This document shows positions 24,787 through 56,242 of a DNA stretch of 64,000 bases, piece by piece. The DNA comes from Bacteroidota bacterium. GTDB taxonomy: Bacteria > Bacteroidota > Ignavibacteria > Kryptoniales > JAKASW01. Under the pieces are notes generated by a model. That model was not told the DNA's origin and searched no databases. It saw only the letters and a program-made list of their open reading frames with translations. The translations under genes were made by a program, and so were the position numbers. The stretch's first letter is position 1, and every line of letters begins with the position of its first letter. Location: positions 8,838 through 72,837 of the forward strand of contig JAJYRM010000004.1 in NCBI GenBank assembly GCA_021794075.1, given 5' to 3'.

Positions 24787-24863
24787 CTGAAATAATCCTT
24801 TCGAGTTATAGTTGAGGCGATATCCATGTGGTCTAGATACGACCTCTTCCCTACTTGACCTTC

Positions 24864-26712: not shown

Positions 26713-26745
26713 AAAAAAAAGGTCGCCCCATTTCTGAGGGCGACC
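26713..26745 (-). terminator. Rho-independent terminator after the large GH18 gene
   Basis: Minus strand: GGTCGCCC-tcagaaat-GGGCGACC followed by T8 (plus-strand A8 at 26713-20). A second 7-bp hairpin (gctcggc/gccgagc, 26770-26790) lies between it and the stop codon. Confidence 0.75.
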
Positions 26746-26806
26746 CCGCGAACATTTCAATTTATGGCAGCTCGGCAGAGTGAGCCGAGCCTGTCTCATC
26801 GAGTCG

Positions 26807-35592: not shown

Positions 35593-37158
35593 ATGGATTT
35601 CATGACCGAGACAACACCGTGGAGACGTGATAAGACAGGGAAATTTGTTCCCGGCCTTCCGTTCGACTTGACCGTCCTTTACCTCGTGATAGTTTGTATT
35701 TCGCTACTCTTCGCGTTCGTGCTCCTGAAGACATACGGCAACATCGAGGCGTCCGTTGCCCTTCTGGTAGTATTCATGGTCCTGTTTCTGTCATTCTACA
35801 GGGTTGATCTCGCGTTCGACCTCTTCGTGGCGATGGTTCTGTTCTTCGACCAATTCATCGTCGTGCCCGGGGACCCGATAACCGAGAAGGTGGGATATTT
35901 CGATAATCTCAAGCAAAATCCGCTCCTCCCACCGACTTCAATCGGAGTAATGAATCCGCTGGAGATACAACTTTTCCTGATGATGTTTGGACTTTTCCTC
36001 GCAATGTGCGCGAGGAAGAATGCGAAATTCCAACGTGTGCCTGTTTGGGGATTGGCCCTACTGTTCACAACGGCGATGATCCTATCGCTGGCTCATGGGC
36101 TCGCGACCGGCGGCATCTTTCTAAGGTCGCTCTGGGAGATCAGGGCACTCTTCTATTTCCTCCTGCTGTATTTCCTGGTCCCGCAAATCATACAGACCAA
36201 AGAACAGATCTATACGCTCCTCTGGATTTTTGTCGTCATGATTGCCGTGAAAGATTTCCAGGGTGCATTAAGGTTCGCGGTGCTCGGTTTTCATTTCAGG
36301 GGTAATCTCTGTCTTACCAATCATGAAGATCCGGTTTTCACCGTTGACCTCTTCATACTCCTGTTCGGTCTTCTCCTTTTCGGTGTGAAGATGAAGCAGC
36401 GTACCGCGATCCTGGCACTGATGCCCATATTCTTACTGGGGTTCTACGCCGGAAAGCGAAGGGCGGCTTACGCGGGCTTCATCGTCTGCGTGATAGTATT
36501 CATGCTTATGTTGAACAAGAAAGAGAGGGCTGTTTTTTACAAATACTTCATCCCAGCCCTGGTGTTAGTCGCGATATATTCGGCGATTTTCTGGAACTCA
36601 CACGGCAGGCTCGGCGCGCCGGTCCGGATGATAAAATCGGGCCTCATCGAAAGCAAGAAAGCGGATGGGTCGCACTACTCTTCCAACCTCTACCGGATAG
36701 TTGAAAGGTATGACCTGGCCGCGACAGTTAAACACTCGCCGATAATCGGGATCGGATTCGGCAAGAAGTACCTTCAGCCTCTGCCGCTCGTAAAGATAGA
36801 CTTTCCCTTGCAGGACTGGATACCTCATGATGAAATACTCTGGCTGCTCGTGAAAATGGGAGCCGTAGGCTTCTTCACGTTCTGGCTTTTCATCGATGGG
36901 CTGCTCTTTGAAACCGTATCCATTACGAAGATTGTGAAGGACCCATTTCTGAAGGCGATGTGCCTGATGATCGCGGCAGCAATAGTCAATCAGATGGTCG
37001 TCTCGTATTTCGATCTGCAGCTGACCTACTACAGGGACATGGTATTCCTCAGCACTCTATGCGGCCTTCTTCCGACTATTAAAGCGCTGCACAGCGCGCA
37101 GATTTCCGAGGAGAACGCTCCGGCGCCCCCGCCGCTCTCGGATGGAGATCGGCAGTGA
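35593..37158 (+). CDS. O-antigen polymerase/ligase-like (Wzy_C-type) integral membrane protein
   Basis: 521 aa with at least 10 TM helices. It has a large loop with ...GKRRAAYAGFIV... and a periplasmic segment before the final TMs, typical of Wzy/WaaL-like proteins. Confidence 0.75.
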   Translation: MDFMTETTPWRRDKTGKFVPGLPFDLTVLYLVIVCISLLFAFVLLKTYGNIEASVALLVVFMVLFLSFYRVDLAFDLFVAMVLFFDQFIVVPGDPITEKVGYFDNLKQNPLLPPTSIGVMNPLEIQLFLMMFGLFLAMCARKNAKFQRVPVWGLALLFTTAMILSLAHGLATGGIFLRSLWEIRALFYFLLLYFLVPQIIQTKEQIYTLLWIFVVMIAVKDFQGALRFAVLGFHFRGNLCLTNHEDPVFTVDLFILLFGLLLFGVKMKQRTAILALMPIFLLGFYAGKRRAAYAGFIVCVIVFMLMLNKKERAVFYKYFIPALVLVAIYSAIFWNSHGRLGAPVRMIKSGLIESKKADGSHYSSNLYRIVERYDLAATVKHSPIIGIGFGKKYLQPLPLVKIDFPLQDWIPHDEILWLLVKMGAVGFFTFWLFIDGLLFETVSITKIVKDPFLKAMCLMIAAAIVNQMVVSYFDLQLTYYRDMVFLSTLCGLLPTIKALHSAQISEENAPAPPPLSDGDRQ

Positions 37159-37198
37159 AAATGAAAGTGAACGTCAAAACTAGACAAGAATGGTTTAA

Positions 37199-38698
37199 AT
37201 GGCTTACTCGATAGCAAAATCCTTGTTTAAGAACAGTGCGCTGATGATGATGGCACAGGCCGCGACATGGGTATCAGGACTCGTTCTCCTGATGGTCGTA
37301 GCGCGTTACCTCGGCAGCGCGGACTATGGATACTTGTACCTTGCGCTTTCCATTCAGACTATTTGCCAGTGGGTCATCGATTACGGCGGCCAGAATTACA
37401 TACCGAAAGAAGTCTCGCGGAAGAAGACAGATTCGTCCGACCTCATGACGCAGTCTATGCTCCTCAGAATGGGGCTATGGGTGCTCTCGATGATCGTTAC
37501 CTTCGCTCTTTGCCTGGTAGCCAACTATTCGACCCGAGTCATAATACTGATCATGGTTCTGGTGTTCTCTAACCTGTGGGTTAATCTGACGCTCCTGCTC
37601 CGTTCCGGGTACCAAGGGTTTGAAGACATGAAATACCCGTCACTTGCGACGGTAGTCGATCGAGGCCTGCTTACAATTACCGTAGTCCCCGCCCTTCTGC
37701 TCGGGCTGCGGGTAACGTCGGTCGCCATACTAATGGCGCTCACGCCGTTCGTCAACTTCCTGATCTGCTTAAGGTTTTCCAAGAAGATGTTCCGGCTGAA
37801 CATCTCTTTACAGATGGACAAGTTCAAGCTGCTGTTGAAAGAGGGATTTCCCTATTTCCTGTGGTCCCTCTTCGGTGTCGTCTACTATCGAATCAATGCG
37901 ATAATGCTTTCGCTGATGACTCCGGCTTCGGTTGTCGGTTGGTATGGAGCGGCTTTCAGATTCTTCGGCATACTCATGTTTCTCCCCGCGATATATTCAG
38001 CGGCCCTTTATCCCATACTCACAAGGCTGAGCCGGTCCGAGGCGCCCTCAATGATTAGCACGTCTCAAAAAAGCATCTCGTTCCTACTCCTTGCGGGGAT
38101 ACCGATAGCGGTCGGCTTGATCTTCTTCTCGCGGTTTATCGTTCAGCTCCTGTTCGGCTTGAAGGAATTCGGACCCTCCGCAGTCATTATCCAGCTTTTC
38201 TCCGCGGGGATGCTCCTGACATATGTCGATTTCGTGTTCGGCGGAATCGTTCTCGCCATTGATAAACAGAAACAGTGGGCAATGATCGCTTTCGGAGCGA
38301 TGGTAGTAAACATCGGGATGAATTACCTACTAATCCCTTACTTCCAGACCCTTTCGGGAAACGGCGGAATGGGCGCGGCAATCGCGACAGACCTGACGGA
38401 ATTATTCGTAATGATATCGGCCCTGTTTCTGATGCCGAGTAAACTCTTCTCACGGAAGCTTCTGGCAACTTGCGGGAAAGGTGTCGCAGCAGGGGTAGTG
38501 ATGGCGTTATCGATAGCGGGCGCGGAGTCGATCGGCTTCCCTTACCTCACGCTTCCCGTGATTGGGCTCGTCGCTTACGTGATCGCATTACTGGCAACAG
38601 CTACATTCAACGTTTCACAATTAAGACATCTGCTTGCCGAGATTTCAATTCCCGGCTTTCTCAAAACATTTTCAGAAAAAAGGAGAGCGAGCGCATGA
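37199..38698 (+). CDS. wzx: Wzx-type polysaccharide flippase (MOP superfamily)
   Basis: 499 aa, about 14 TM. N-terminus SLFKNSALMMMAQAATWVSGLVLLMVVARYLGSADYGYLYLALS is typical of the Polysacc_synt family. Confidence 0.85.
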   Translation: MAYSIAKSLFKNSALMMMAQAATWVSGLVLLMVVARYLGSADYGYLYLALSIQTICQWVIDYGGQNYIPKEVSRKKTDSSDLMTQSMLLRMGLWVLSMIVTFALCLVANYSTRVIILIMVLVFSNLWVNLTLLLRSGYQGFEDMKYPSLATVVDRGLLTITVVPALLLGLRVTSVAILMALTPFVNFLICLRFSKKMFRLNISLQMDKFKLLLKEGFPYFLWSLFGVVYYRINAIMLSLMTPASVVGWYGAAFRFFGILMFLPAIYSAALYPILTRLSRSEAPSMISTSQKSISFLLLAGIPIAVGLIFFSRFIVQLLFGLKEFGPSAVIIQLFSAGMLLTYVDFVFGGIVLAIDKQKQWAMIAFGAMVVNIGMNYLLIPYFQTLSGNGGMGAAIATDLTELFVMISALFLMPSKLFSRKLLATCGKGVAAGVVMALSIAGAESIGFPYLTLPVIGLVAYVIALLATATFNVSQLRHLLAEISIPGFLKTFSEKRRASA

Positions 38699-40791
38699 AG
38701 ATCCTGCACGTAACACCTTACTCCCCCGTCCCCCCAACATTCGGAGCTGCGCTGCGGATGTACCACATTCTCCGCGGGCTCGCACAGCTGCATGAAGTTA
38801 CGTTCGTCACTTTCGGGACAAAGAAGGATCTTGAAGGACTTAGATCTGCTTTCGGAGATTCGCTCGACAGCATTCACGTGGTGCCGCCAAACTTCCTCGC
38901 CCGCAGGCACCCGTGGCTCAGGTTATTGGCCGCCTTCCGAAGAAGCGAAAGTTTTTATACTCAATACACTAACGGCACGGAAATGCAGGCCGTTCTCGAC
39001 AGGCTCTATGAAAACAGCCATTATGATTTCACCATAGTCGAATTTCCGCACATGGGAAAATTCAAATTCGGCGCGGACACGATCAGCATTCTGGATGAGC
39101 ACAATGTCGAGTATTCAAATTTCGAGAGGATGTACAAGAACATTCATTCCCCCGCCAGGAAGCTGTTGTACTTCAGGGAACACAAGAAGACTTATCAGGA
39201 GGAGTTGAAAGCGTGCAAAAGCGTAGACGCGATTTTCACAACATCGATAAACGACAGCCAAATCCTTGATCGCGAAGTTCCGAGGAAGCCAAAATACGTC
39301 ATACCTAACGGCGTGGACACCGGATACTTCGTGCCATCCAAGGCCGAGCCCGAACCGTATTCGATGGTTTTTACAGGGACAATGGATTACGTGCCGAATC
39401 AGGATGGCGTGTTGTACTTCCTTGATGAAATATTCCCGCTCATAAAACAAGTTTTGCCTCAATCGAAGGTATACATAGTAGGAAAGAATCCGCCGAAGGC
39501 GATTACGCGAAGAGCGAACGTAGACACTATCGTGACAGGTTTCGTGGAAGACGTAAGGCCTTATACCTGGAAGGCCTCTGTGTACGTGGTGCCGCTGAGA
39601 ATGGGTAGCGGGACAAGACTGAAAATACTCGAGGGACTAGCCATGAAAAAACCGATCGTTAGCACAAGCATAGGCTGTGAAGGAATTGAAGTCAGGAATG
39701 GGACAGATCTCGTCGTGGCCGACAGCCCGGCCAAGTTCGCCGCGGAGGTGGTCGATCTGTTCTTGAACAGAGTGAGAGCGATAAGTCTTGGCGAGAATGG
39801 TTACGAACTCGTGAAGTCGCGATACGATTGGAGCGCTGTCGTCTCAAAAATGGATGACGCTTTAACGTCACTGTACAAAAAGAAGTACGGAAACGACAGA
39901 GATATCGGTTCTATCCAGATGAAAGAATCTCACAGCATCCCTGAACACCACGCGCAGGCGCAATACGAAGAACAGCACACTGTAAAAGTGCTTATGTATC
40001 ATCGTGTCGTCAACGACGAAACGCACATTGATCAGTATTCATGGAATGTGACCGTCTCTCAGCTCAGGAGACACCTTGAGCTCCTCGGCAAGTGGGGATA
40101 CACCTGCATTAACTTCGAGGATTACGCCCTTTTCCAACGGGGGAAGCTCAATCTTCCCAAGAAGCCCGTCATAATGACTTTCGACGACGGATACGACGAG
40201 ATGCACCGGAACGCTCTACCGATCATGAAAGAATTCGGCGCTCGCGCCACGGCATTCATACTTGGCGACCGCTCGATTAAATCGAACACATGGGATGTGG
40301 AATCGGGATTCGAAGGAGCGACGCTGATGGACGACGATCAGATACTTGAGATGAAAGACGCGGGGTTTGAGATAGGTTCACATTCCATGACACATCCGGA
40401 TCTCACCCGACTTTCCGAGCGCCGTGCCAGAAAAGAGATCTTTCAATCGAAGGAAATCCTGGAAGACTTGCTAGATTCTCCGGTCATCTCTTTCGCCTAC
40501 CCTTTCGGTTCCGCGAACAGCCTGATGGAAAGACTTGTGAAAGAAGCGGGGTACGATTACGGCTGCGGAGTATACTCGGGTCCTCCGAGATTCGCCCACG
40601 ACAAGTACGATATTCGCCGCATTCCCATAACTAGAAAGACGAACGCCGTCGATTTCGCATTGAAGATCCTGACCCCTTACGAGTATTATGAATGGATCAG
40701 ATGGGAAACTGGACGCATGATTCGCGGTAGCAAAGTCACCGTCGGCGTTCAGAGTGGAGCATCCGACGACGGAGAGGAAGGGACAATATGA
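38695..40791 (+). CDS. Fusion: GT4 (GT-B) glycosyltransferase + CE4/NodB polysaccharide deacetylase
   Basis: 699 aa from MKILHVTPYSP. The ATG overlaps the wzx TGA (ATGA at 38695-38698). GT4 core: FTGTMDYVPNQDGV...VVPLRMGSGTRLKILEGLAMKKPIVST. CE4 motifs: MTFDDGYDE, GSHSMTHPDL, FAYPFGS. No signal peptide. Confidence 0.85.
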   Translation: MKILHVTPYSPVPPTFGAALRMYHILRGLAQLHEVTFVTFGTKKDLEGLRSAFGDSLDSIHVVPPNFLARRHPWLRLLAAFRRSESFYTQYTNGTEMQAVLDRLYENSHYDFTIVEFPHMGKFKFGADTISILDEHNVEYSNFERMYKNIHSPARKLLYFREHKKTYQEELKACKSVDAIFTTSINDSQILDREVPRKPKYVIPNGVDTGYFVPSKAEPEPYSMVFTGTMDYVPNQDGVLYFLDEIFPLIKQVLPQSKVYIVGKNPPKAITRRANVDTIVTGFVEDVRPYTWKASVYVVPLRMGSGTRLKILEGLAMKKPIVSTSIGCEGIEVRNGTDLVVADSPAKFAAEVVDLFLNRVRAISLGENGYELVKSRYDWSAVVSKMDDALTSLYKKKYGNDRDIGSIQMKESHSIPEHHAQAQYEEQHTVKVLMYHRVVNDETHIDQYSWNVTVSQLRRHLELLGKWGYTCINFEDYALFQRGKLNLPKKPVIMTFDDGYDEMHRNALPIMKEFGARATAFILGDRSIKSNTWDVESGFEGATLMDDDQILEMKDAGFEIGSHSMTHPDLTRLSERRARKEIFQSKEILEDLLDSPVISFAYPFGSANSLMERLVKEAGYDYGCGVYSGPPRFAHDKYDIRRIPITRKTNAVDFALKILTPYEYYEWIRWETGRMIRGSKVTVGVQSGASDDGEEGTI

Positions 40792-42281
40792 TCGAGATGC
40801 CAACGGCATATTGGGACGTACCCTCCCCCGCTACCGAGATCATCGACAGGAAGCGCCCCGGCAACACTATAACCGTGCAACTTGTGACCGATATGTCGTC
40901 GTTTGCCGCGCTGGAGGGTGAATGGGACACGCTTGTATCAGATAGTTCAACGACAATCTTTCAAACTTTCGCCTGGCAATTTCTTTGGTGGAAACATTTC
41001 GGCTCACGTCCCGAGAATCATCTCTACATAGTGCTATTCAGAAGCAGTGAGAAGCTGATCGGCATTGCACCGTTGTTCATAAAGACTCTCTCACTATTTC
41101 ACTTCAGAATTAACAGGAAGCTCCTCCTCCTCGGCTCCGGCCTTGCCTCTCCGCATTCACCGGTACTCTCGCTCGAGAAGCAGGGTCCGCTCGATTATCT
41201 CGACATAATTTCCGCCCGAGGTTCCGAAGACCTTGTAGCGGATGCTTTTATAGCGCTTCTCCAGAACAGGAATAGGCTCTGGGACGAAGTCGAGTTCCAG
41301 AATCTTCGCGAGGACGGGACCGTCATGACGCATCTCTTGCTCAAATGCAAAGACCGCGATTTCTCTATCATCATGGAACACGAGGACACCTGTCCATTTG
41401 TCGGTTTGCCTGATAGTCTGGACAAGTTTCTCTACTCGATGAAACGGAGTGTCAGGCGTAATCTGCGCTACGTACAAAGGGGATTCCTCGAAAATCCTGA
41501 ATACAGTGTCGAGGACGCGGCGGCAAATGGAAACGCCGACGGCGCCCTTCAATTGTTGTCCCAACTTCATCAGAAGCGTTGGAATGAAATCGGATATCCC
41601 GGTCTTTTTGCGGATTCCCGCTTCGGAGCCCTTATCAAAGACATTTCGAAATCCCTCAAGCAAAATGGAAGGTTGTGGTTGAAGGTTTTGCGACACGAAG
41701 GCAAGGCGATCGCGGTGAACCTTTGCTTCAAATTCAACGGCACAATGTACACGTACGCCAGCGGTTTCGATCGTGATTCAGCTGCTGCGGGAACTTCTGG
41801 AGCAGGCTCTGCCCTGGTCTTCCAAAACATCATAGACTCAATAGAGTCACGATGCAGCGTAATCGACATGGGACGCGGGACGGAATCTTACAAATTTCAG
41901 TTCACCTCAAATACGCGCCAGAGCTGGCGGTTGAGATTGAAGCTCAGTGAAGAATCGAGCGCCGCGATCCGGGCCTACGTCTACCGAATTTATACTTTAT
42001 GGAACCGGGCGCTTTCAAGGTTCACCTGCGAGGTAACGATCGCAAGAGTTCTCATTAAAGGTAAAGGCGCCGTCCGCGGCATATCCGGATATATCTCGCA
42101 CCTCAGGGTCCGTCTGTTCGCAAAAATGGGAAGCTTCAGTAGATCGAAACCGGAAGGAGAGTCAAGATCTACCGGCGATGATAACAGTGCGGACGACGAA
42201 CGCTCTTCCCAAAAGGGATCGCCTCATCCGAAGAAAGGCAATGGAGTCGAGGATGCAGCCGAAACCGCCGGCGATAAATGA
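40788..42281 (+). CDS. CelD/BcsL-like GNAT (FemAB-like, Acetyltransf_6-type) protein 1
   Basis: 497 aa. FQTFAWQFLWWKHFG...LIGIAPLF; SMKRSVRRNLR; C-terminal GNAT half AVNLCFKFNGTMYTYASGFD. Acidic low-complexity tail. ATGA overlap with the upstream gene. Confidence 0.75.
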   Translation: MIEMPTAYWDVPSPATEIIDRKRPGNTITVQLVTDMSSFAALEGEWDTLVSDSSTTIFQTFAWQFLWWKHFGSRPENHLYIVLFRSSEKLIGIAPLFIKTLSLFHFRINRKLLLLGSGLASPHSPVLSLEKQGPLDYLDIISARGSEDLVADAFIALLQNRNRLWDEVEFQNLREDGTVMTHLLLKCKDRDFSIIMEHEDTCPFVGLPDSLDKFLYSMKRSVRRNLRYVQRGFLENPEYSVEDAAANGNADGALQLLSQLHQKRWNEIGYPGLFADSRFGALIKDISKSLKQNGRLWLKVLRHEGKAIAVNLCFKFNGTMYTYASGFDRDSAAAGTSGAGSALVFQNIIDSIESRCSVIDMGRGTESYKFQFTSNTRQSWRLRLKLSEESSAAIRAYVYRIYTLWNRALSRFTCEVTIARVLIKGKGAVRGISGYISHLRVRLFAKMGSFSRSKPEGESRSTGDDNSADDERSSQKGSPHPKKGNGVEDAAETAGDK

Positions 42282-42312
42282 TAATGTCAGCCATTAACAA
42301 AACTGGAGGATT

Positions 42313-43506
42313 ATGACCAGCCACGTTAACGCATTCGTGAACACGGAAGCGACCGCCCCGCAAGATATACAATTCCCGGAGACAGTCCACTTCCCGGCCG
42401 AAACAATTGTGGAATACGTTGATGACCTCGAGATGCTGCAGCAGATCCGAAGTGAGTGGGAGGGCCTGTCGTCATCATTTAACACACCGCTTCTCAGTCA
42501 TAACTGGTTCGCGTCTTGCGCGCACGCGTTCGGTTCCCATGAGCAGCCCGAAATTCTCATCATTCGGAGGCGCGGCGAGATCGAGGCGATTGCCCCGCTA
42601 GCCTTCAAGGGACATTTTCAAAAGAGGCTGGAAGTTATGGGAAGCTTCGTCACGAATGAACCAGGCGGAGTTATCTTTGCAGACCAGCGTTCTCTCGCGC
42701 AACTATGGGAAGCCGTGTGCGATCTACAAAAGACGGTTTTCCTGAAAGGATTCCGATTCGGTTCTCCGGAAGCTCAAGCATTGGAAAGCCTGCTCCACTC
42801 AAGACGAATCAAGTTCCTGGCGAGAGAAGAGCAACTCCCCTGGGTCAACACAAGGGGCGAATGGAAGGACTTCGAGAAGACCATCTCGTCCAGTCGGCGC
42901 TCAAGTTTCCGCAGGCTTCGCAAGCTTGCGGAGTCGAAGGGACAACTCGTTTTCGAAGAAGTGATTCCCACGCCCGAGAATGTCCAAGGTTATCTTGAAG
43001 AGCTTTTCAAAGTGGAGGCCGCGGGTTGGAAAGGAAGGACGGGAACCGCCATGAGGTCGTTTAAAGAGCTCGGCGAATTCTTCAGGACCTATTCGAGGCT
43101 GGAGGCTGAGGAAGGAAGGCTCAGGCTGTTCTTCCTCAAAGTCGGCGGACAGACTATCGCCGGCCAGCTTACCGTCGTTCGCGCAAACAGGCTCTGGATA
43201 TTCAAGATAGGCCATGATGAATCCTGGTCATGGTGCTCACCGGGGATTCTTCTCATGAACGAAGTGATCAAATATTGCTTCGACACGAAACTGGAAGGCT
43301 GCGAGATGCTCGGGAGCGACGAGCCATGGCTTCACATCTGGACCAACGAATGCCATACCGTGGTAACATACAGGATATATCCCAACGTTATTGCCGCGAT
43401 GTCGGATCTCCTGACAGATTTTGCTTACGTCGTGTCAAATAAAATAGCCACAAAGTTTGCGAAACAGAGAGGGGCGAGGCCTGCGAATGCTCACAAAAAT
43501 GCGTAA
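42313..43506 (+). CDS. CelD/BcsL-like GNAT protein 2
   Basis: 397 aa. LLSHNWFASCAHAFG...IEAIAPLAF; SSSRRSSFRRLRKL; IAGQLTVVRANRLWIFKIGHDESW. Confidence 0.75.
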   Translation: MTSHVNAFVNTEATAPQDIQFPETVHFPAETIVEYVDDLEMLQQIRSEWEGLSSSFNTPLLSHNWFASCAHAFGSHEQPEILIIRRRGEIEAIAPLAFKGHFQKRLEVMGSFVTNEPGGVIFADQRSLAQLWEAVCDLQKTVFLKGFRFGSPEAQALESLLHSRRIKFLAREEQLPWVNTRGEWKDFEKTISSSRRSSFRRLRKLAESKGQLVFEEVIPTPENVQGYLEELFKVEAAGWKGRTGTAMRSFKELGEFFRTYSRLEAEEGRLRLFFLKVGGQTIAGQLTVVRANRLWIFKIGHDESWSWCSPGILLMNEVIKYCFDTKLEGCEMLGSDEPWLHIWTNECHTVVTYRIYPNVIAAMSDLLTDFAYVVSNKIATKFAKQRGARPANAHKNA

Positions 43507-44335
43507 TAGAGTCACGAGCGCCATTGCTTCCCGGCATGTTGCCGGACATAAGCTGAGCGATGCCTTGCTGATATGCCGGTGGGCCGAATCGGAAGGGTTT
43601 AGAACCGTTATCTCTCCGTGGGCCGGAGCCCTCGATACCCCGCGCGACATGTTCAGCCGTTATGCAGCGGCTATCGAGGCCGTCACGGAGAAAAACGATG
43701 CCAGGTATGTTTCGATGAAGCTTGATTCGATCAACTACGACGGTGGATTATTCGATGATCTAGTACACCTCGCACGGGCAAGCCACGCACAGCTCCACAT
43801 CGATTCACTCGGTCCTGAAACGGCTGATGCTGCCCTCAGCTTCGTAGAAAGAGCCGTCACGTCAGGATACTATATCGGCTATACAATGGCTTCCAGGTGG
43901 CGGAGAAGTCTCACGGATGCGGAAAGAGTCGCAGACCTCGGCGTCCCAGTTCGGATTGTCAAAGGACAATGGCCCGACCCTTCCGGCCGGGCCATAAACT
44001 GCAGGAAGAACTTCACTGAAATCGCCGCTACGCTTTCGAAAAGGTGCCGCCGCATCGGTGTGGCGACACATGATGTGGTCCTCGCCAGAGAAGTCTTGAC
44101 GCGTTTCGTGGTTCAAAATGCCAACATCGAGTTGGAACAATTCTTCAGTCTTCCTCTCAACGGCGTGGCGCTCGCCAAAGAATTTGATCGGCCGTACCGG
44201 CTTTATATTTCTTACGGCCAACCGGGAATTCCGTACAACATCAGGTTCACGTTGACGCGGCCGAGGATCGCGGCGTGGGTGCTCGCTGATTTTGCCATCC
44301 ACGCGAGAAAGCCATGGGCTCAAAATCCTACTTGA
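43487..44335 (+). CDS. Proline dehydrogenase-family (PRODH-like) TIM-barrel protein
   Basis: Collinear with short bacterial PRODH: SRHVAGHKLSDAL..AESEGF; YVSMKLDSI; VRIVKGQWPDP; IGVATHDVVLAREV; YRLYISYGQPGIPYNIRFTLTRP. The start is uncertain (ATG 43487 or 43499; the ORF is open from 43457). Confidence 0.65.
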   Translation: MLTKMRNRVTSAIASRHVAGHKLSDALLICRWAESEGFRTVISPWAGALDTPRDMFSRYAAAIEAVTEKNDARYVSMKLDSINYDGGLFDDLVHLARASHAQLHIDSLGPETADAALSFVERAVTSGYYIGYTMASRWRRSLTDAERVADLGVPVRIVKGQWPDPSGRAINCRKNFTEIAATLSKRCRRIGVATHDVVLAREVLTRFVVQNANIELEQFFSLPLNGVALAKEFDRPYRLYISYGQPGIPYNIRFTLTRPRIAAWVLADFAIHARKPWAQNPT

Positions 44336-44408
44336 CCAGCTTCCTTCAATTTATGCTAGACAAATCCAAGCACCTTAAATGAATATCAAACTGGAGCGGA
44401 GTTAAAGA

Positions 44409-46571
44409 ATGAAATTAGTATTCATGGTCGTCAACCTCCTTTTCCTTGTGCCGGCATTAATCTTCTCGTCATACCTGGCTGTACTTACGATTGCCGCGGC
44501 GCTTAAGGGAAAACAATTCAAAGTGGCATCCGCAAAGTCTCAAAGGAGGTTTGCCATACTCGTCCCTTCGCACGACGAGGAGGCTGTAATTGAAAACACG
44601 CTCGCCAGCCTGGGGGACTTAGATTACCCGCGAGACAGGTACGACGTGATCGTTATCGCTGATAATTGCTCGGACAAGACGGCGGATATCGCCCGGTCGC
44701 ACGGCGACGTCGTCTTCGAAAGGTTCGATGACACGAACAAGGGAAAGGGACAAGCGCTGAGGTGGTGCCTAGACAGGTTAAAGAGCGAGGGAGCCGCATA
44801 CGACGCCTTCGTAATCATCGATGCCGACACAGTGGCCTCTTCAAATCTTCTCACGGTCATGAACGACTATCTTGAAGAAGGCGCTATGTGCATCCAGTGC
44901 AGTACGCTGGTCACCCCGCAGCCAGGCGCCTGGAGCCCGGAAATGACGCGGATCGGTTTCTTGCTTCACAATTATACCAGGCCGCTCGGCAAGAAGGCTC
45001 TGGGACTGAGCATGGGACTGAATGGAAACGGGATGTGTCTGTCGTCAAATCTACTCTCATCAATCCCCTGGTCGGCTTACTCACGCGTCGAAGACCTGGA
45101 GCACGCGCTGAAACTGGCAATTGAAGGCGTTCGCGTCATTTTTGCTCCTGAAGCCTACGTTCACGCCATTATGCCGACAGATTCCCGGCTCGCTGAGTCT
45201 CAGCGCCGTAGATGGGAACTAGCAAGGTTTTCAATAATTAAGAATTACACCTGGACGTTGCTTTCCGCCGCTATTCGAAAAAGATCTCTCGTAATCTTCG
45301 ATATGTTAATGGACCTCATCACCCCCGCCTTCGTGAACCTCTTTGTGTTGACAGTGGCGGGACTATTAGTTAATGCCGCCGGAACAGTCGTCCTGGGAGC
45401 GCCTTCCGCTCTGCTGTGGATGATGCCCGCCTATTTTGGCGCTCTCCTTCTTGAGACCTTCCACGTCGTCGGCGGGCTTAAGGTAGCGAACGCCGACCGA
45501 GGCGCCTACCGGACCTTAATGAGCACGCCGAAATATGCCTTGTGGAAATTTAAACTCTATATAAGGACAATAATAAAGGGCGACGATAAATTATGGCTAA
45601 GGACGGAGAGGGAGCGTTCTCTTCCCACGGGGAGCGCCGGGGAATCGACTGACACGTCGCGGAGAACCGACCGGAGCTCACATCGAGATGAGGGGTCTAC
45701 TCGCGGTGAGGAAAATATCAGATTTCCATTTCAACCAAGGGTAATGTCGGTACGGATTGACACTTTGAACGCTGAAGAAGTAATGAAAAAGATCGGACAG
45801 TTCCTGAAAGATTCGAAGCTCCATACTATTGCCACAGTTAATCCGGAGTTTGTGATGACCGCGCGGAAAGACAGGGAGTTTCTGCGGATTCTAAATCACG
45901 CTGATCTAAACATCGCCGATGGCATCGGTGTTCAACTTGCCATGAAGATGATGTATGGAGAAGTGTGCGAGAGGATTACCGGAGTCGATCTGACCTGGCG
46001 ACTTACTGGGCTTGCCGCCGAGCAAGGCTATTCTATTTTTCTGCTGGGAGCCGCGGAAGGAGTTGCCCGCGACGCTGCAGCGAAGATGAAAGAGAGATAT
46101 CCGGCGCTTAAAATCGCCGGATACTATTCGGGGAGACCCGACGAAGAAGGCCTGGTCGAATGCATCAATCTGACCAATCCCGACATACTCCTCGTCGCGT
46201 TCGGCGCTCCGAAACAGGAGAAGTTTATATTTAAGAACGCGAAAACTCTTAACGCGAAGATTGCGATGGGCGTGGGCGGGACATTTGATTATATAGCCGG
46301 AGTTGTTCCACGGGCGCCCGCCTGGATGAGACGACTCGGGATGGAATGGCTCTATCGACTCGCGAACCAGCCCGAACGAATAGGGAGAATTCTAACCGCA
46401 ACGGTGCGCTACCCTATCGCGATGTACTTTTACAAATCCTCAAAATCGTCGGTATCGAGAAAAGTCCTCGGCGAGTCACTCAATGAGTTGAAGTCAACGA
46501 TCGAAGCTCCATCGTCCCCCGCTCCCAGGGCGAATCTTGTTCATTCCAATTCGCGGGCAGTCGAGGTATAG
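44409..46571 (+). CDS. Fusion: membrane-embedded processive GT2 synthase (D,DxD,ED,QRRRW) + GT26 WecG/TagA/CpsF-family transferase
   Basis: 720 aa in a single ORF. N-terminal TM. FAILVPSHDEE, IADNCSDKT, VIIDADT, RVEDLEHAL, QRRRW. Four C-terminal TMs and a charged linker. Then VNPEFVMTARKD...ADLNIADGIGV...LLGAAEGV...LLVAFGAPKQEKF...GVGGTFDYIAG...RAPAWMRRLGMEWLYRL. Confidence 0.85.
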   Translation: MKLVFMVVNLLFLVPALIFSSYLAVLTIAAALKGKQFKVASAKSQRRFAILVPSHDEEAVIENTLASLGDLDYPRDRYDVIVIADNCSDKTADIARSHGDVVFERFDDTNKGKGQALRWCLDRLKSEGAAYDAFVIIDADTVASSNLLTVMNDYLEEGAMCIQCSTLVTPQPGAWSPEMTRIGFLLHNYTRPLGKKALGLSMGLNGNGMCLSSNLLSSIPWSAYSRVEDLEHALKLAIEGVRVIFAPEAYVHAIMPTDSRLAESQRRRWELARFSIIKNYTWTLLSAAIRKRSLVIFDMLMDLITPAFVNLFVLTVAGLLVNAAGTVVLGAPSALLWMMPAYFGALLLETFHVVGGLKVANADRGAYRTLMSTPKYALWKFKLYIRTIIKGDDKLWLRTERERSLPTGSAGESTDTSRRTDRSSHRDEGSTRGEENIRFPFQPRVMSVRIDTLNAEEVMKKIGQFLKDSKLHTIATVNPEFVMTARKDREFLRILNHADLNIADGIGVQLAMKMMYGEVCERITGVDLTWRLTGLAAEQGYSIFLLGAAEGVARDAAAKMKERYPALKIAGYYSGRPDEEGLVECINLTNPDILLVAFGAPKQEKFIFKNAKTLNAKIAMGVGGTFDYIAGVVPRAPAWMRRLGMEWLYRLANQPERIGRILTATVRYPIAMYFYKSSKSSVSRKVLGESLNELKSTIEAPSSPAPRANLVHSNSRAVEV

Positions 46572-46606
46572 CGGCGGGGTTGTAATATGTCAATCAGTAG
46601 GGGATC

Positions 46607-47245
46607 ATGGAACTCGCCGAAGACTCATTGACGTTTCACAGGTTGAGCGAAGTCAGCCGTCGCACAAGACTGCGTTTGCGGAAATATTCTCTCATCTCTC
46701 ACATGAGGGGGTTGTGGTTCGCGAGAAAGCTGACGCGTCACGGGATCGTCGTCGTGACGGGAAGATACCCCGCGCCAAGAGTGCTGAATCGCGGAGGCAT
46801 AATCGATGTGAAGAACTGTGAATTCTACGAAGGCGTCAGGCTGGAGGTTTACAAGGGGGGCATTCTTACGATCGGCAACGGGACATACCTAAACAGGAAC
46901 GCGGTTGTGATAGCGGTCGGCAGAGTCGAGATAGGAAACGACTGTCGTATCGGCTGGGATGTCGTCGTAATGGATTCCGACCTGCATCCGGTAGACGCGA
47001 ACGATCAGCCGATAGAAAGCTCGCCGGTGATTATCGAGGACGATGTATGGATCGGATGTCGATCCATAATCTTAAAGGGGGTAAAGATAGGCAGACGTTC
47101 AGTCGTCGCGGCCGGTTCGATAGTCACAAAAGACATCCCTCCGAACAGTATAGCCGCCGGGGTCCCGGCGCGCGTCATCTCGAACAATCCGGAAAAAGCC
47201 GAATTCTTCCTCAAGAAAATCAAATCAGTACCGACCTCCGACTGA
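46607..47245 (+). CDS. Hexapeptide-repeat (LbH) acetyltransferase (maltose/galactoside O-acetyltransferase-like)
   Basis: 212 aa. IGNDCRIGWDVVVMDSDLHP...PVIIEDDVWIGCRSIILKGVKIGRRSVVAAGSIVTKDIPPNSIAAGVPARVI. Confidence 0.85.
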   Translation: MELAEDSLTFHRLSEVSRRTRLRLRKYSLISHMRGLWFARKLTRHGIVVVTGRYPAPRVLNRGGIIDVKNCEFYEGVRLEVYKGGILTIGNGTYLNRNAVVIAVGRVEIGNDCRIGWDVVVMDSDLHPVDANDQPIESSPVIIEDDVWIGCRSIILKGVKIGRRSVVAAGSIVTKDIPPNSIAAGVPARVISNNPEKAEFFLKKIKSVPTSD

Positions 47246-47255: not shown

Positions 47256-50129
47256 TTACGAAAGATCCTTGCGTTTTAAGAGAGCAAGGAGTCTTTTGTG
47301 TAACGGAAAATCGGCGATCGTGAGAAGCCTGACCACGAGCTGCTGCAGTGAATCCGGCGGATAAGACAGGATAAAATCACTTTTAAGGCCGTCCATGTCC
47401 ACCTTCAGCAGCGACGCGACGGCATCCAGCAATCCTGTTTGGCCCGCTCCCGAGAGGACCGTGCAGCCTAATTTTCTTTCCAGCCTGCGAATTTCACTCG
47501 AGCAATTGGACGGCGCGTATGGATATCGGACCATCTTCAACATCGGAATGTCTTCTTTCGAATCCCCGATAGCGGCTGTATTATCGCCTGAAAAACCAGC
47601 GAACATTTTGAATGGTTCGATGGCACTTCCCTTATCGACATTTCTGCACATGAAGTAAGTGTCGGCTTTCCTGGAAATCACCTTTAGCCTCTCGAACTCG
47701 TTTCTTTCCAAAAACTCCTCAGCCTCCTGATTCGTCAGTCCTCGCGTCCCTCCCGGCACATAACGGTAGGCCCTTACCGCGTAATGGTACGCGGGATCGA
47801 TAAAGACGCCATTCATTTCTCGCAAAGACTTCCGGCAGCGACCAAGCTCATCCAGAGTTTCGTTGTCGACCAGGGAGAGTTCGGTGCCGGTCTTCATATT
47901 AAGCATCGCGCTTCCATATTCTGCGATACCGCCGATAAACCCGAAGTTCCGGCAGTAATCACGGACATGCTCGATGCTTCTGCCAGTGTTGGGTACAACT
48001 TTATACCCAGCCGCTCCAAGTAGAGAAATAGCCTCGAGTCCTCGCGCCGTGGTATGTGGGAATCCCATGATTTCGGAATCGAACACGCCGTCGAGGTCCA
48101 TAAAGAAGAGGCCTGATTTTGCCTCGCCCGCGTCCACGCGGCGGAGCAACGAAGACGAAAACCTGTTCATGGTGTAAACGCGAAAATTCCAGGACCATAG
48201 ACGCCTTTCACTCAACTGGTCGCTGTCCACTTTCTTGTCACCCTTCATAATTCTGTGAAACGCTCGCTCAGATTCCGACGTCGCATATAGCAGCTTGTGC
48301 ACGAATATTCTTTCCCTGAGTGTTTCTACATCGCCGCTTCGAGCCGAATAATTTTCCACCAGTCGATCTTCGCTAGCCTCGTCCAAATGAAATTCGAATA
48401 CCGTTGCGGCGATGTCATATGCCGGGTCCACGACATCGAGCTCAGGCGCGCCGAAGCAGTGCTGCTCGAAATCGATCTTGACGAGCCCGCCGTCACTTCT
48501 AATCCACTCGCCGGGTCTCATCCTTCCGTCTATCAGTGTCGGCCGGAACTTCAGCGCCATCTTAAGCCTATCCAATAGCGCCGGATACTTCAGATAGCCG
48601 AGAAGCCGATTGTAAACGCTCCTCAGGATACTCAGAATCTCAAGCCATCCCCAGCCGAGGTAAGGAATGTTTCCCTTCGGATCTTCGGCAAGCGCGAGCG
48701 TCTCCCGCCTGCGGGCGAGATAGGAAGACATCTTCTCGATGATCTCGTCCGTGACTTCAGAATCCGTCAATGCGGCGCCTTCGATCCATTCCATGATAAG
48801 AATCCCTTCCCTGAATCCGAGAACCTCCGGCACGAATCCCTTCAGAGCCCGTCCGGCGATATAAGCATGATAACCGAGCCAGCCGAATCCGACGCTCTTG
48901 GCGATAATCTTCTTTCGATTTTCTGTCCCATCCTCATACCTGAGTACTGCGTCGTAGACACGTTTGAGTCGAGCCTGAAAGCTGGCTGGATAATGAGACC
49001 AAAGGCGTCCGTTCACTTCGTCGGTCCATTCGTTTTCAATCATTACCGCGCTTCGGACTCCCGATTCAGAGAGCACATCGCAGATCATTCGCTCCATGGA
49101 GGCAGGCTCGAGCATTTCCGCGACGCGAAGGTCCTTAAGATGGACAGTAACCAAACCGGCCTTGTTGTGAGCCTTCTCCTGTATCTCGACGGACAAATCA
49201 ACGCCTGCCGCCGGATGCACGGGTACAAGCATCATGATTCGACCCGGGTCTGCTCCAAAATCAAGGACGCACTTTTCGAGCATCCGAACAGTCTTTCCAG
49301 TGTTCGAGTAATCATCCGACAACAGGACATTCACGTCTTGCCGAAGAAGCATTTTCAGCCTCTTCGCTTCCATGCCGTGAGCTCCGTATCGAGGTCTCAG
49401 CGTGATCCAATTAACATTCTTGACTCCGTGTTCCTGCAAGTAAATCTTGAGCAACGGGGCAAAGTAGCTTCCAGCGGTCCTGGCGCCAACTATCACATAT
49501 TCAGCATCCTTGTCAGGATTCGTGTCGAGAAAGCGCTTTCCAAGCGTCATTATATCGTCGGCGTGCAGATCCTGGCAAACATATCCTTCGTTCAGCCTCA
49601 TCCGCGCTTTCATAAAATCAGGAGGGAAGACTCCCGCTCTCACATTCCCGAACGAGCGAGAGAGCTCAGCAATTTCAGACTCGGCCGGTTCACCATCGTT
49701 CACCAGGGACCTGCAAGTCATTTCGGTAAACCGATCAAGCTCCTCTTTCCATCTCCATATTGCGCGTAGCCTAACGGACGACCTGAATTGCAGCGGATAG
49801 TTCAAAACATTTTCAACCAGATGAATGAGCTTGCCAAAGTGTGGAAAGATCCGGGCCAACGGCATGATATGCCACCTGCGCCGGGACAGATAATCGTCGG
49901 CCGTGCAACTCATCGCGCAGGCGAAGATGTAAAGATTGACCATCATCTCGCTTCGCTGCCACTGAACTGTGCACTTCCGGCAACGTTCCAGTTCATCGCC
50001 TGTTCTCGCGATAAGCTCCCTGATGGTGAGAAACGGATTTGTAGACCACAGATAATTATTGAAGAAGTCCCGCTGACCTTGCACGGCAACCGATTCGCCT
50101 GCATCCTCGATCAAATGTTTTGTTTCCAT
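47256..50129 (-). CDS. Tri-domain fusion: unknown N-domain + PRTase-like + APH/choline-kinase-like + HAD-IIB phosphatase
   Basis: 957 aa. PRPP-type loop YVIVGARTAGSYFAPLL...VLLSDDYSNTGKTV. Kinase-like IDGRMRPGEWIR..GLVKIDFEQ. HAD motifs FFMDLDGVF, VPNTGRS, VDKGSA, AIGDSKEDIPML. Confidence 0.8.
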   Translation of the reverse strand: METKHLIEDAGESVAVQGQRDFFNNYLWSTNPFLTIRELIARTGDELERCRKCTVQWQRSEMMVNLYIFACAMSCTADDYLSRRRWHIMPLARIFPHFGKLIHLVENVLNYPLQFRSSVRLRAIWRWKEELDRFTEMTCRSLVNDGEPAESEIAELSRSFGNVRAGVFPPDFMKARMRLNEGYVCQDLHADDIMTLGKRFLDTNPDKDAEYVIVGARTAGSYFAPLLKIYLQEHGVKNVNWITLRPRYGAHGMEAKRLKMLLRQDVNVLLSDDYSNTGKTVRMLEKCVLDFGADPGRIMMLVPVHPAAGVDLSVEIQEKAHNKAGLVTVHLKDLRVAEMLEPASMERMICDVLSESGVRSAVMIENEWTDEVNGRLWSHYPASFQARLKRVYDAVLRYEDGTENRKKIIAKSVGFGWLGYHAYIAGRALKGFVPEVLGFREGILIMEWIEGAALTDSEVTDEIIEKMSSYLARRRETLALAEDPKGNIPYLGWGWLEILSILRSVYNRLLGYLKYPALLDRLKMALKFRPTLIDGRMRPGEWIRSDGGLVKIDFEQHCFGAPELDVVDPAYDIAATVFEFHLDEASEDRLVENYSARSGDVETLRERIFVHKLLYATSESERAFHRIMKGDKKVDSDQLSERRLWSWNFRVYTMNRFSSSLLRRVDAGEAKSGLFFMDLDGVFDSEIMGFPHTTARGLEAISLLGAAGYKVVPNTGRSIEHVRDYCRNFGFIGGIAEYGSAMLNMKTGTELSLVDNETLDELGRCRKSLREMNGVFIDPAYHYAVRAYRYVPGGTRGLTNQEAEEFLERNEFERLKVISRKADTYFMCRNVDKGSAIEPFKMFAGFSGDNTAAIGDSKEDIPMLKMVRYPYAPSNCSSEIRRLERKLGCTVLSGAGQTGLLDAVASLLKVDMDGLKSDFILSYPPDSLQQLVVRLLTIADFPLHKRLLALLKRKDLS

Positions 50130-50507: not shown

Positions 50508-51383
50508 ATGGGAAAAAGAGCGCATTCGATATATGTAGGTTCATTCTTCGTCGTAGGAGTGTTGTCAACTCTCCTACTAGCGATAAACGGGTATCAATAC
50601 TACACCACCCCGCTGGTCGATAGATTCTTCAACGCGCAGAATTCGCTCCTTGAGCCAAGCGGCTTCATCGGCGAAGGGCTCGGCGTATTGGGAAGCCTCA
50701 TGATGATAGTCGGTGTCGCAATCTACATGCTCAGGAAAAGAGTCAAGGCGTTCCTGCACATCGGCTACCTGAAAAACTGGCTGGAGCTTCACATCTTCCT
50801 CTGCACGCTCGGGCCGGTCTTCGTTTTGTTTCACACATCCTTTAAGTTCGGCGGCATAGTTGCCGTTAGTTTCTGGAGCATGACAGCGGTCGTGCTGAGC
50901 GGCGTAGTCGGGCGTTTTCTTTACGTGCGAATCCCCAAAACGATCCAGGGTCAGATACTCGGTGTCCGCGAGCTGGACGAGCTGGGGCGAGTCTATTCCC
51001 GGAAGCTCCAGACAGATTATCACGTCGATGACAAGCTCATTCGAATGATAGAGACGGCGTCCGACTATACTCAACTGAAGAAGGAGACGCTCCACAACAG
51101 CATCGTCTTCCTAATGAAGGACGCGACACACATGCGGCGTACTCTGCGCATCTTCGGAAAGCAGCTGAAGGCGGCTGGACTATCGCACGCGGAAATAATA
51201 AGGACCAAACGAGTCGCCAAGTCGCGGATGATCTTGGCAAGAAGGATTCGTCTGCTCAACGTGATGCACCGGTTTTTCCGGCACTGGCATATCGTCCATC
51301 TCCCCTTCGCGATAATCATGTTCCTGATAATGTTTATTCACATCGGCGTCGTCTTCGCGTTCGGCTACAGATGGATATTTTAA
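50508..51383 (+). CDS. Integral membrane protein with conserved-looking TM histidines (possible b-type heme/electron-entry subunit)
   Basis: 291 aa, about 5 TM. His in helices (LELHIFLC..VLFHTSF; RHWHIVHLPFAIIMFLIMFIHIG). It overlaps the next gene by 13 nt. Confidence 0.6.
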   Translation: MGKRAHSIYVGSFFVVGVLSTLLLAINGYQYYTTPLVDRFFNAQNSLLEPSGFIGEGLGVLGSLMMIVGVAIYMLRKRVKAFLHIGYLKNWLELHIFLCTLGPVFVLFHTSFKFGGIVAVSFWSMTAVVLSGVVGRFLYVRIPKTIQGQILGVRELDELGRVYSRKLQTDYHVDDKLIRMIETASDYTQLKKETLHNSIVFLMKDATHMRRTLRIFGKQLKAAGLSHAEIIRTKRVAKSRMILARRIRLLNVMHRFFRHWHIVHLPFAIIMFLIMFIHIGVVFAFGYRWIF

Positions 51384-56239: not shown

Positions 56240-56242
56240 TCG

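Follow-up and report, generated by a model that had tools for sequence, protein, structure and literature searches.

A widespread family of phosphoribosyltransferase, kinase-like and HAD-IIB phosphatase fusion proteins associated with bacterial surface-polysaccharide loci

In the 64,000-nt window analysed here (positions 8,838 to 72,837 of contig JAJYRM010000004.1, from a Bacteroidota bacterium), a 957-codon gene on the minus strand encodes a fusion of an all-helical domain, a type I phosphoribosyltransferase (PRTase) core, a divergent kinase-like domain and a HAD-IIB phosphatase (Table 1). The domain identities, the conserved catalytic residues, the size of the family, its glycan-locus context, its partner genes and the gene fusions were observed directly. 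As a possible rather than a probable reading, we propose that the protein is a cytoplasmic three-enzyme fusion of an uncharacterised family for surface-polysaccharide biosynthesis, which would combine phosphoribosylation of an exopolysaccharide (EPS) acceptor from 5-phosphoribosyl-1-pyrophosphate (PRPP) with 5-dephosphorylation and an added phosphoryl transfer.

The gene is an uninterrupted open reading frame (ORF) with an ATG start, and the ORF list of the window holds no rival long ORF that overlaps it. The closest relative is colinear across all 957 residues, with 94% identity at the protein level and 96% at the DNA level, and the ratio of nonsynonymous to synonymous substitution rates against this 96%-nt-identical relative was 0.35; full-length homologs range from 25 to 94% identity. 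Conservation and structure prediction were based on an alignment of 57 full-length homologs, to which all statements on conserved residues below refer. The AlphaFold2 model has a mean predicted local distance difference test score (pLDDT) of 90.8 and a predicted template modelling score (pTM) of 0.92, thus the four parts are predicted to form one compact, confidently packed body. The first-pass annotation, made from the letters of the window alone, had described this minus-strand ORF as a four-part fusion, and the parsing into helical, type I PRTase, aminoglycoside phosphotransferase (APH)/choline-kinase (ChoK)-like and HAD-IIB parts was borne out by the ORF itself, by domain hidden Markov models (HMMs) and family profiles, and by Foldseek on the predicted structure; every motif that it quoted is present and conserved across the 57 homologs. 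Family profiles were required for this, and searches of Pfam, NCBIfam and PDB with the single sequence saw only the HAD domain and a marginal PyrR match (residues 203–302). A membrane-anchoring amphipathic helix was considered for the C-terminal tail and rejected after an unconvincing hydrophobic-moment survey; the tail holds the conserved LLxxADR helix instead.

Hydrolase_3 was the single Pfam model above its curated cut-off for the window protein (2e-10, 41.3 bits against 20.9). The NCBIfam Cof, HAD-SF-IIB, SPP and phosphoglycolate-phosphatase families matched at 1e-13 to 1e-9, below the curated cut-offs of these subfamily models, and some homologs match S6PP (PF05116). When the whole model was compared with PDB by Foldseek, the first 49 matches were HAD-IIB phosphatases (PH1421, TA0175, sucrose-phosphatase, Cof-type and trehalose-6-P phosphatases), with 1wr8 at 6.6e-11 and the three structures 1wr8, 1kyt and 1s2o spanning 1e-9 to 7e-11. 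All four catalytic motifs were found. Motif I, DLDGV (678–682), has invariant D678 and D680; motif II, NTGRS, has T715 in the window protein and in the family consensus, followed by R717, which is invariant or at least 90% conserved; K833 of motif III is invariant; and motif IV, GDSKED (855–860), has D856 in at least 90% of homologs, an invariant D860, and G855 that is invariant or at least 90% conserved. In the model, an alpha/beta insert of ∼118 residues between T715 and K833 forms the C2B cap, so that the description of this domain as a complete HAD-IIB phosphatase was confirmed.

Since just Hydrolase_3 passes a curated cut-off, and family members are named in the databases merely ‘HAD hydrolase family protein’ or similar, the protein could be taken, as NCBI annotates it, for a plain HAD sugar phosphatase whose N-terminal extensions are degenerate and non-catalytic. 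We find this hardly credible, because 24 invariant residues lie outside the HAD domain, residues of the PRPP loop and the kinase motifs among them, and the four-part architecture is kept across at least nine phyla and candidate phyla in what is modelled as a compact, confident structure. Homologs keep the whole architecture rather than being ordinary phosphatases with unrelated N-terminal extensions, and the PRPP-binding residues are conserved, not lost.

Because HAD matches swamped the Foldseek list of the whole model, residues 1–355 were modelled separately (pLDDT 88) to expose the PRTase. Type I PRTases, which have a five-stranded parallel alpha/beta core, then made up 43 of the top 50 matches, most with a probability of ∼1.0, at target-normalised template modelling scores of 0.23–0.56 and E-values of only 7e-3 to 6e-2; the regulators PurR and PyrR are among the top PRTase matches. 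Searched against PDB, the family profile matched PyrR (2e-4), a purine PRT (4e-4), OPRT, GPRT, XGPRT and HGPRT, at 1e-4 to 1e-2 overall and always on profile positions ∼194–313. With a profile of the N-terminal part only, about 50 PRTases and PRPP synthetases (APRT and Prs included) appeared among the best 60 matches, all of them on the PRPP loop, which is also covered by the profile alignments to 1vdm and 3qw4. The Pfam family PF00156 gave no match in the window protein at E ≤ 1; it is precomputed in 24 of 118 homologs, and in homolog P0127 it scores 24.3 bits against a cut-off of 26.3.

The PRPP loop, VLLSDDYSNTGKT (residues 268–280), reads VLLS followed by D272, D273, YSN, T277, G278, K and T280 and agrees with the type I PRTase motif of a hydrophobic strand, two acidic residues and xxx-T-G-x-T; D272 is invariant and G278 is present in at least 90% of homologs. 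In the pyrophosphate (PPi) loop, GARTAGSY, residues G215, R217, G220 and Y222 are invariant and T218 is invariant or at least 90% conserved, and the basic flexible loop RPK is invariant across phyla. The PRPP-binding PRTase loop noticed at first pass was thus upheld, by its conserved residues and by type I PRTase fold matches. Judged from sequence and model, the core is a type I PRTase fold with intact PRPP and PPi loops, and PRPP-dependent transfer is what we predict for it.

The helical domain of about 200 residues, which had been left unassigned, proved to be novel over residues ∼17–203. Neither Foldseek of the 1–355 model nor the N-terminal profile against PDB gave a structural or sequence match for residues 1–203, and ferritin-like sequence matches were dismissed as non-significant (E ≥ 0.026), reflecting generic helical-bundle similarity. 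Its conserved residues are F22, Y26, W28, E46, W57, E61, N65, W127, D187 and D192. In type I PRTases, a nucleophile held by a ‘hood’ displaces pyrophosphate from PRPP, and the helical domain is probably the acceptor-binding hood of this PRTase.

For the kinase-like domain, Foldseek of the whole model found ethanolamine kinase of P. vivax (2qg7, E = 7.5e-7, probability 1.0) at rank 50, behind the HAD matches, in keeping with a bilobal kinase fold, and the domain alone matched LicA choline kinase (4r77) at 8e-3, aligned over DPxxDLA. Pfam APH reached 1e-3 and 19.3 bits, below its cut-off of 23.2, and only 2 of 16 members match it at E ≤ 1. In the catalytic loop IDGRMRPGEW (533–542), D534, M537 and W542 are invariant and E541 is present in at least 90% of homologs; in the IDFEQH motif (IDFE at 552–555), K551 and H557 are invariant, and D553 and E555 reach at least 90%. 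Hence both the DFG-equivalent DxE motif (I-D553-F-E555-Q-H557) and the D568-P-A-Y-D572-I-A helix are present, and further residues that are invariant or at least 90% conserved are K389, K411, G414, G416, W417, G419, Y420, H421, D568 and D572. With 17, this domain has the most invariant positions of any, and it is therefore no decayed linker. The APH/choline-kinase-like fold named at first pass, with an Asp in IDGRMRPGEW and IDFE in place of DFG, was recovered, whereas the catalytic loop turned out to be atypical. The invariant stretch KSVGWGWLGYH (residues 411–421, window positions 48870–48902) follows the presumed beta3 lysine and was not seen in the alignment with LicA, the single APH/ChoK alignment returned, which covers the C-lobe only; it could be used as a search signature for the family.

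That the kinase-like domain is the most conserved, with its 17 invariant residues, would also suit a role in sugar-phosphate supply, in which an APH-like sugar kinase acts first, the HAD-IIB domain trims a second phosphate and the PRTase fold merely senses PRPP or a nucleotide like PurR and PyrR, both of which are among the top PRTase matches. APH-like sugar kinases acting at the anomeric or other positions include NahK, AmgK, MtnK and maltokinase. Such a role would follow the logic of the heptose pathway (HldE/GmhB-type), or of sucrose-phosphate synthase and phosphatase with an adjacent GT4 glycosyltransferase, and it agrees with the HAD-IIB relatives SPP, MPGP and T6PP, which act after a glycosyltransferase, with the S6PP matches of some homologs and with the GT4 genes that are directly coupled in several loci. 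However, invariant catalytic-type PRPP and PPi loops and an RPK loop kept across phyla are more than a sensor needs, and the large conserved hood suggests a second substrate, which makes a supply role rather improbable.

At first pass the protein was called an orphan; it belongs instead to a large conserved family of full-length homologs. A word-index search gave 118 clusters at 90% identity, nearly all of 900–1000 aa, and an exhaustive HMMER search with the N-terminal profile against 50%-identity representatives gave 1319 proteins at E ≤ 1e-3 and 447 at E ≤ 1e-30; at 50% identity the family thus has 447 clusters or more, and the length of complete members is nearly always 900–1000 aa. A scan of one genome per species found relatives in 203 genomes, from which 80 loci were kept, all in metagenome-derived assemblies. 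The carriers among the kept loci belong to Acidobacteriota, Bacteroidota/Ignavibacteriota/Kryptoniota, Gemmatimonadota, Burkholderiales, Verrucomicrobia, Nitrospirae, Rokubacteria and Armatimonadetes. Literature searches on PF13480/FemAB-like proteins and on PRODH, PRTase, HAD and EPS in combination returned nothing on the family. One long member, P0195 (1718 aa), carries an N-terminal extension of 770 residues that has no Pfam match; it was considered as a triple fusion with the Fem-like and PRODH-like partners described below and rejected, as these 770 residues resemble neither partner.

The gene had also been said to stand alone between the EPS locus and a cytochrome operon, which is incorrect: it closes the EPS locus in convergent orientation, and in other genomes it accompanies genes of that locus. 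The neighbouring operon encodes, in order, a Wzy-like protein, a Wzx-type flippase, a fusion of GT4 and polysaccharide deacetylase, two Fem-like proteins (Fem1 and Fem2), a proline dehydrogenase (PRODH)-like protein, a fusion of GT2 and WecG/TagA, and a hexapeptide acetyltransferase. The same EPS block adjoins homologs in six other loci (L001, L002, L008–L010 and L013). L002, which carries a 48%-identical homolog, keeps the EPS side but has unrelated genes in place of the cytochrome side; the cytochrome side is kept beside the 94% relative alone among homologs.

Two observations concern the operon itself. Both of its fusion genes lie on the plus strand, one joining a GT4 glycosyltransferase to a polysaccharide deacetylase (38470–40791) and the other an EpsU-like GT2 to a WecG/TagA-family transferase (44409–46571), of which the latter two are separate genes in L002. 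At the head of the operon lies a gene for a LuxR/GerE-type response regulator (34410–35054, minus strand), which may be the locus regulator; the homolog in L007 has a similar one immediately upstream.

Six-frame ORFs of 89 homolog loci were searched with HMMs built from the window proteins, and the 74 loci for which 15 kb or more was available were treated as a well-flanked subset. At least one glycan-assembly gene was found in 61 of these 74, and glycan genes (GT2, GT4, Wzx, Wzy, Bac_transf, Wzz, Poly_export, polysaccharide deacetylase, Wzi) were present in nine of the nine neighbourhoods annotated with Pfam. A Fem-like gene of the Fem1 or Fem2 type occurs in 60 of the 89 loci, a PRODH-like gene in 56 and both in 55; in the well-flanked subset they occur together in 48 loci. 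Typically the genes abut and are co-directional, in the order Fem2, PRODH-like, family gene and, in some cases, a Fem1-like gene. Moreover, PF13480, the family of the Fem-like proteins, is fused to the C-terminus of the family protein in P0045 and to the N-terminus in P0127 and P0217. Among loci that lack the Fem/PRODH pair, GT4 directly abuts or overlaps the family gene in L005, L033, L048 and L088, the overlap often lying at the stop codon of the family gene.

Two loci have unusual gene sets. In L005, two family paralogs (10001–12898 and 19268–22219) lie 6 kb apart and flank genes for GT4, an adenylation–peptidyl carrier protein (PCP) protein, a P450 and a condensation-domain protein, with FkbH-like, PCP and MBOAT genes upstream; this set suggests an acylated or peptide-bearing glycan. 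In L004, from a metagenome-assembled genome of Vicinamibacteria, genes for a methyltransferase, MBOAT, an AlgX-like protein and a carrier protein come after the homolog (12913–17514); they make up an O-acylation set of the Dlt or alginate-acetylation type, which stands where other loci have the Fem/PRODH pair.

From ribosyl transfer, phosphorylation and dephosphorylation in one chain, the first-pass annotation had proposed a ribosylated small molecule or nucleoside-like signal. In its fuller form, this would be a Ter-like pathway to a soluble ribosylated or nucleoside-like metabolite, in which an N-nucleophile attacks PRPP, the kinase and HAD domains edit phosphates and Fem-like or ATP-grasp enzymes add amino acids, by a logic like that of PurF/PurD or of a peptidyl-nucleoside pathway; the product would be a signal or antibiotic, or would be attached to EPS later. 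Several observations agree with it: the PRTase domain is closest to nucleobase PRTases and PyrR, L003 and L018 have a minimal three-gene cassette with few glycan genes, and NRPS-like (nonribosomal peptide synthetase-like) genes lie beside the two paralogs of L005. The Ter system also makes a nucleoside derivative with PRTases and HAD enzymes, according to the passage of PMC7824862 that cites Anantharaman, Iyer and Aravind 2012.

The suggested mining of homolog neighbourhoods for Ter and ATP-grasp partners gave a divided answer. ATP-grasp neighbours were found in 12 of the 89 loci; L007, L072 and L087 have a PF15632 (ATPgrasp_Ter) match that passes the cut-off, and in the remaining ATP-grasp loci the match falls short of it or is missing. 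The window has none. TerD, TerB, TerC and TelA, in contrast, had no Pfam match in the nine Pfam-annotated neighbourhoods, and the window protein did not match the Ter-linked families PRTase_1/2/3 at E ≤ 1. Against a soluble product there are also the glycan genes of most well-flanked loci and the translational coupling of GT4 to the family gene, and no exporter or receptor is consistently linked. Hence, while the one-chain logic is reasonable, the context makes a small-molecule signal less likely than glycan tailoring, and we consider such a pathway unlikely.

Methionine salvage uses an APH-fold kinase (MtnK), HAD phosphatases and APRT, a similar enzyme set, and methyltransferases adjoin the family gene in some loci. 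It could therefore be asked whether an MTR-kinase-like kinase, an APRT-like PRTase and the HAD domain recycle 5′-deoxy- or methylthio-ribose and base from glycan tailoring dependent on S-adenosylmethionine (SAM). This is very improbable: neither a nucleosidase nor an isomerase was found as a partner, the linkage of SAM enzymes is not consistent, the HAD domain is of class IIB and not of the MtnX/MtnC type, and the large novel hood would be left unexplained.

The Fem/PRODH pair deserves separate treatment. With T. thermophilus PRODH (2ekg) at 5e-29 and D. radiodurans PRODH at 4e-26, both over the full length, and Pfam Pro_dh matched by 29 of 35 members, the 292-aa protein is, by sequence comparison, a genuine but divergent homolog of monofunctional proline dehydrogenase. 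The motifs RxVKG, ATHD and YVPYG, which we take to contact FAD, are retained. The Thermus segment ‘YLTRRIAERP’, which presumably holds the Arg-Arg pair that clamps the proline carboxylate, reads ‘PYxLxQAxxxP’ in the PRODH-like family, and a new motif, LPGRWxRSxxD, is invariant in this subfamily. Because the clamp segment is lost, the substrate is expected to be other than free proline; candidates are an amide of the prolyl type and a phosphorylated compound. Fem2 is similar to BspF, a crotonyltransferase of PF13480, thus its donor could be acyl-CoA or aminoacyl-tRNA.

A reciprocal metagenome scan with the PRODH-like profile (loci L090–L169) gave 17 loci flanked by 3.5 kb or more on either side. 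All 17 contained a Fem-like gene and nine contained the family gene, and in the loci without it a polysaccharide deacetylase, GT2 or GT4 lies beside the pair. Obligate coupling of the family gene to the pair was rejected on this count. Thus Fem and PRODH make up a tight module, and the 957-aa enzyme a second module that often joins it and is sometimes fused to it. On its own, too, the pair appears to be a glycan-tailoring unit not described before, and a clamp-less PRODH-like enzyme that is always paired with a FemAB-like transferase would point to undescribed glycan tailoring chemistry, which may matter equally to the main finding.

In bacterial polysaccharides, ribofuranose (Ribf) is introduced by a PRPP-using transferase followed by a HAD phosphatase (PMC10299916, PMC11294581, PMC11127046), and the CriT transferase of Bcs3 has a PRTase-like core flanked by helical bundles (PMC10299916). 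The window protein has in common with gPRT-PRP and CriT-CrpP a PRPP-binding transferase domain and a HAD phosphatase in one protein at a glycan locus. On account of this same logic as in the PRPP-dependent Ribf transferases, and of a similar genomic setting, we favour as its function the phosphoribosylation of an acceptor from the EPS pathway. The PRTase core would bind PRPP, the helical hood with its aromatic and acidic residues would present the acceptor, and ribose-5-phosphate would be moved onto it; candidate acceptors are a hydroxyl or a de-N-acetylated amine on the sugar of an intermediate linked to lipid or nucleotide, or the acyl or aminoacyl substituent of such an intermediate. The HAD-IIB domain would strip the 5-phosphate and make the step irreversible. 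HAD-IIB enzymes of the SPP, MPGP and T6PP type strip the phosphate left by a transfer step. The APH/ChoK-like domain would use ATP to phosphorylate either the acceptor or the product of ribosylation, for example to place a transient or permanent glycan phosphate, and the Fem-like and clamp-less PRODH-like proteins, where present, would act as a separable module that acylates or aminoacylates and oxidises the same intermediate. In this scheme we infer PRPP as the donor, the nature of the acceptor, the order of the steps and the kinase activity.

Several points weigh against the phosphoribosylation of an EPS acceptor. The nearest PRTases are nucleobase or regulatory proteins (PyrR, PurR, HGPRT, OPRT), the makers of N-glycosidic bonds, and Bcs3/CriT and T. 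composti gPRT-PRP are absent from the Foldseek top 50 of both the full-length and the N-terminal model and from the best 60 profile matches. The catalytic loop departs from the Brenner motif HxDxxxxN: the Asp is kept, the His is absent, and a Glu stands at the Asn position after a 2-residue insertion; with His and Asn missing, kinase activity is plausible but not established. No alphaC Glu was identified in the kinase-like domain of the 57-homolog alignment. In the known Ribf transferases there is no role for a chain that unites kinase and phosphatase. Coupling to the Fem/PRODH pair is facultative, as the pair occurs without the family gene in 8 of 17 loci and the family gene without the pair in about one-third of loci. 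Finally, every carrier found is metagenome-derived, and the proposed chemistry is a prediction.

A bolder version of phosphoribosylation in EPS assembly, which we regard as speculative, is that the enzyme and its Fem-like, PRODH-like and in some loci ATP-grasp partners make a previously unknown EPS substituent, namely a ribosyl (possibly N-ribosyl) group on a de-N-acetylated amino sugar, which would then be phosphorylated and aminoacylated and would perhaps carry a prolyl group oxidised by the PRODH-like enzyme. Such a ‘nucleoside-like’ peptide-ribose decoration would be a third independent PRPP-ribose route into bacterial glycans.

Table 1. Positions of the fusion gene, its domains and the adjoining EPS operon in the window
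Feature	Coordinates	Strand	Basis or remark
Whole gene, 957-aa helical-hood/PRTase/kinase-like/HAD-IIB fusion	47256..50129	-	stop codon 47256–47258
All-helical N-terminal domain, residues ∼17–203	49521..50081	-	DSSP of models, conservation
Type I phosphoribosyltransferase core, residues 204–355	49065..49520	-	profile vs PDB, Foldseek, PF00156 in some homologs
Divergent APH/choline-kinase-like domain, residues 356–668 (313 aa)	48126..49064	-	Foldseek 2qg7, LicA 4r77, Pfam APH below cut-off
HAD-IIB phosphatase with C2B cap, residues 669–910	47400..48125	-	Pfam Hydrolase_3, NCBIfam, Foldseek
C-terminal two-helix tail, residues 911–957, family motif LLxxAD(R)	47259..47399	-	alignment, AlphaFold2 model
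EPS operon	35593..47245	+	convergent; 10 bp separate its end from the stop codon of the fusion gene
Fem1, PF13480 GNAT	40788..42281	+	Pfam; phmmer matches in 47/87 loci
Fem2, PF13480 FemAB-like/BspF-like GNAT	42313..43506	+	Pfam; NCBIfam BspF 2.5e-21; commonest family partner
PRODH-like flavoenzyme, 292 aa	43457..44335	+	profile vs 2ekg 5e-29; true start probably ∼43487

Divergent from the fusion gene, the plus strand at 50508–57892 encodes a 291-aa hydrophobic-looking ORF, a ferredoxin–FAD/NAD oxidoreductase fusion and large CxxCH-rich multi-haem cytochrome ORFs, beyond which lies a CcmF-like gene (58412–60802). Just upstream of the EPS locus, a secreted BNR/Ycf48-like beta-propeller with an Ig/fn3 domain carries a sorting tail of the type IX secretion system (T9SS; 31360–33402, plus strand), which supports an origin of the window in the FCB group (Bacteroidota-like). 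Five GH18 (chitinase-like) paralogs lie in a row at 15346–30082 on the minus strand, three of which have T9SS C-terminal sorting domains and one of which is a 1091-aa form with Big_7 and HYR domains; among them lie GlmS (17378–19354) and a ComA-like phosphosulfolactate-synthase homolog (20973–21785).

To our knowledge, PRPP-dependent glycosylation has been recognised only recently, and two enzyme solutions are known, the gPRT-PRP/CriT-CrpP proteins and UbiA-type three-component systems. If our proposal is true, the present family would be an independent, widely distributed solution with an added kinase step. Its carriers, at least 203 genomes at species level, come from phyla that are dominant in soil and sediment but uncultured, and its product may therefore be common in environmental biofilm matrices without having been recognised. 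A defined function would correct many annotations, since the family is annotated just as ‘HAD hydrolase’, and the protein would offer glycoengineering a self-contained three-activity module.

Kinases that phosphorylate a sugar in a growing glycan with a protein-kinase/APH-like fold include WbdD, WaaP, KdkA and the eukaryotic FAM20B, and FAM20B together with the phosphatase PXYLP1 illustrates that transient glycan phosphorylation and dephosphorylation can gate assembly. The likeness noted to these kinases is one of fold; the catalytic loop of the window protein is DGxMRPxEW and not HxDxxxxN. With the pairs SPS/SPP, MPGS/MPGP and OtsA/OtsB the protein has in common the logic of transfer onto or with a phosphorylated partner followed by dephosphorylation, and a HAD-IIB domain nearest to SPP, MPGP, PGP and Cof, and the GT4 neighbours recall sucrose-phosphate synthase; those pathways, however, make free compatible solutes and contain no PRTase or kinase. 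The Ter module, as outlined in the passage of PMC7824862 noted above, likewise has PRTase and HAD chemistry with an amide-forming ATP-grasp ligase, and PF15632 ATP-grasp genes occur in some homolog loci, whereas in the window protein the domains share one chain with a kinase-like domain, the family lies within glycan loci, and no Ter proteins are nearby in the nine annotated neighbourhoods.

The gPRT-PRP proteins of Klebsiella, Thermobacillus composti and Salmonella (STM0726; PMC11294581, PMC11127046) are also single cytoplasmic polypeptides of PRPP transferase and HAD phosphatase from polysaccharide loci; the D14A variant of STM0726 trapped a 5-phosphorylated intermediate. In the prototype the PRP domain is N-terminal, whereas the HAD domain of the window protein is C-terminal, of class IIB, and joined by a 313-aa kinase-like domain and a 200-aa helical hood. 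Bcs3 of Haemophilus influenzae type b (CriT-CrpP-CroT; PMC10299916) is likewise a three-enzyme machine with PRPP transfer, HAD 5-dephosphorylation and a third, phosphoryl-type domain; this third domain is a TagF-like GT-B ribitol-phosphate polymerase, in place of which the window protein has an APH-like kinase and no SH3b, and Bcs3 is tied to capsule export, whereas the window locus has Wzx- and Wzy-like genes. Membership in the CriT or gPRT families was considered and rejected, as neither the best 60 profile matches nor the Foldseek top 50 showed specific similarity, the domain order differs and the kinase domain is new. Thus, what is known is the recently found chemical theme of PRPP transfer with a HAD phosphatase, and what is new is a large unannotated family with a new architecture.

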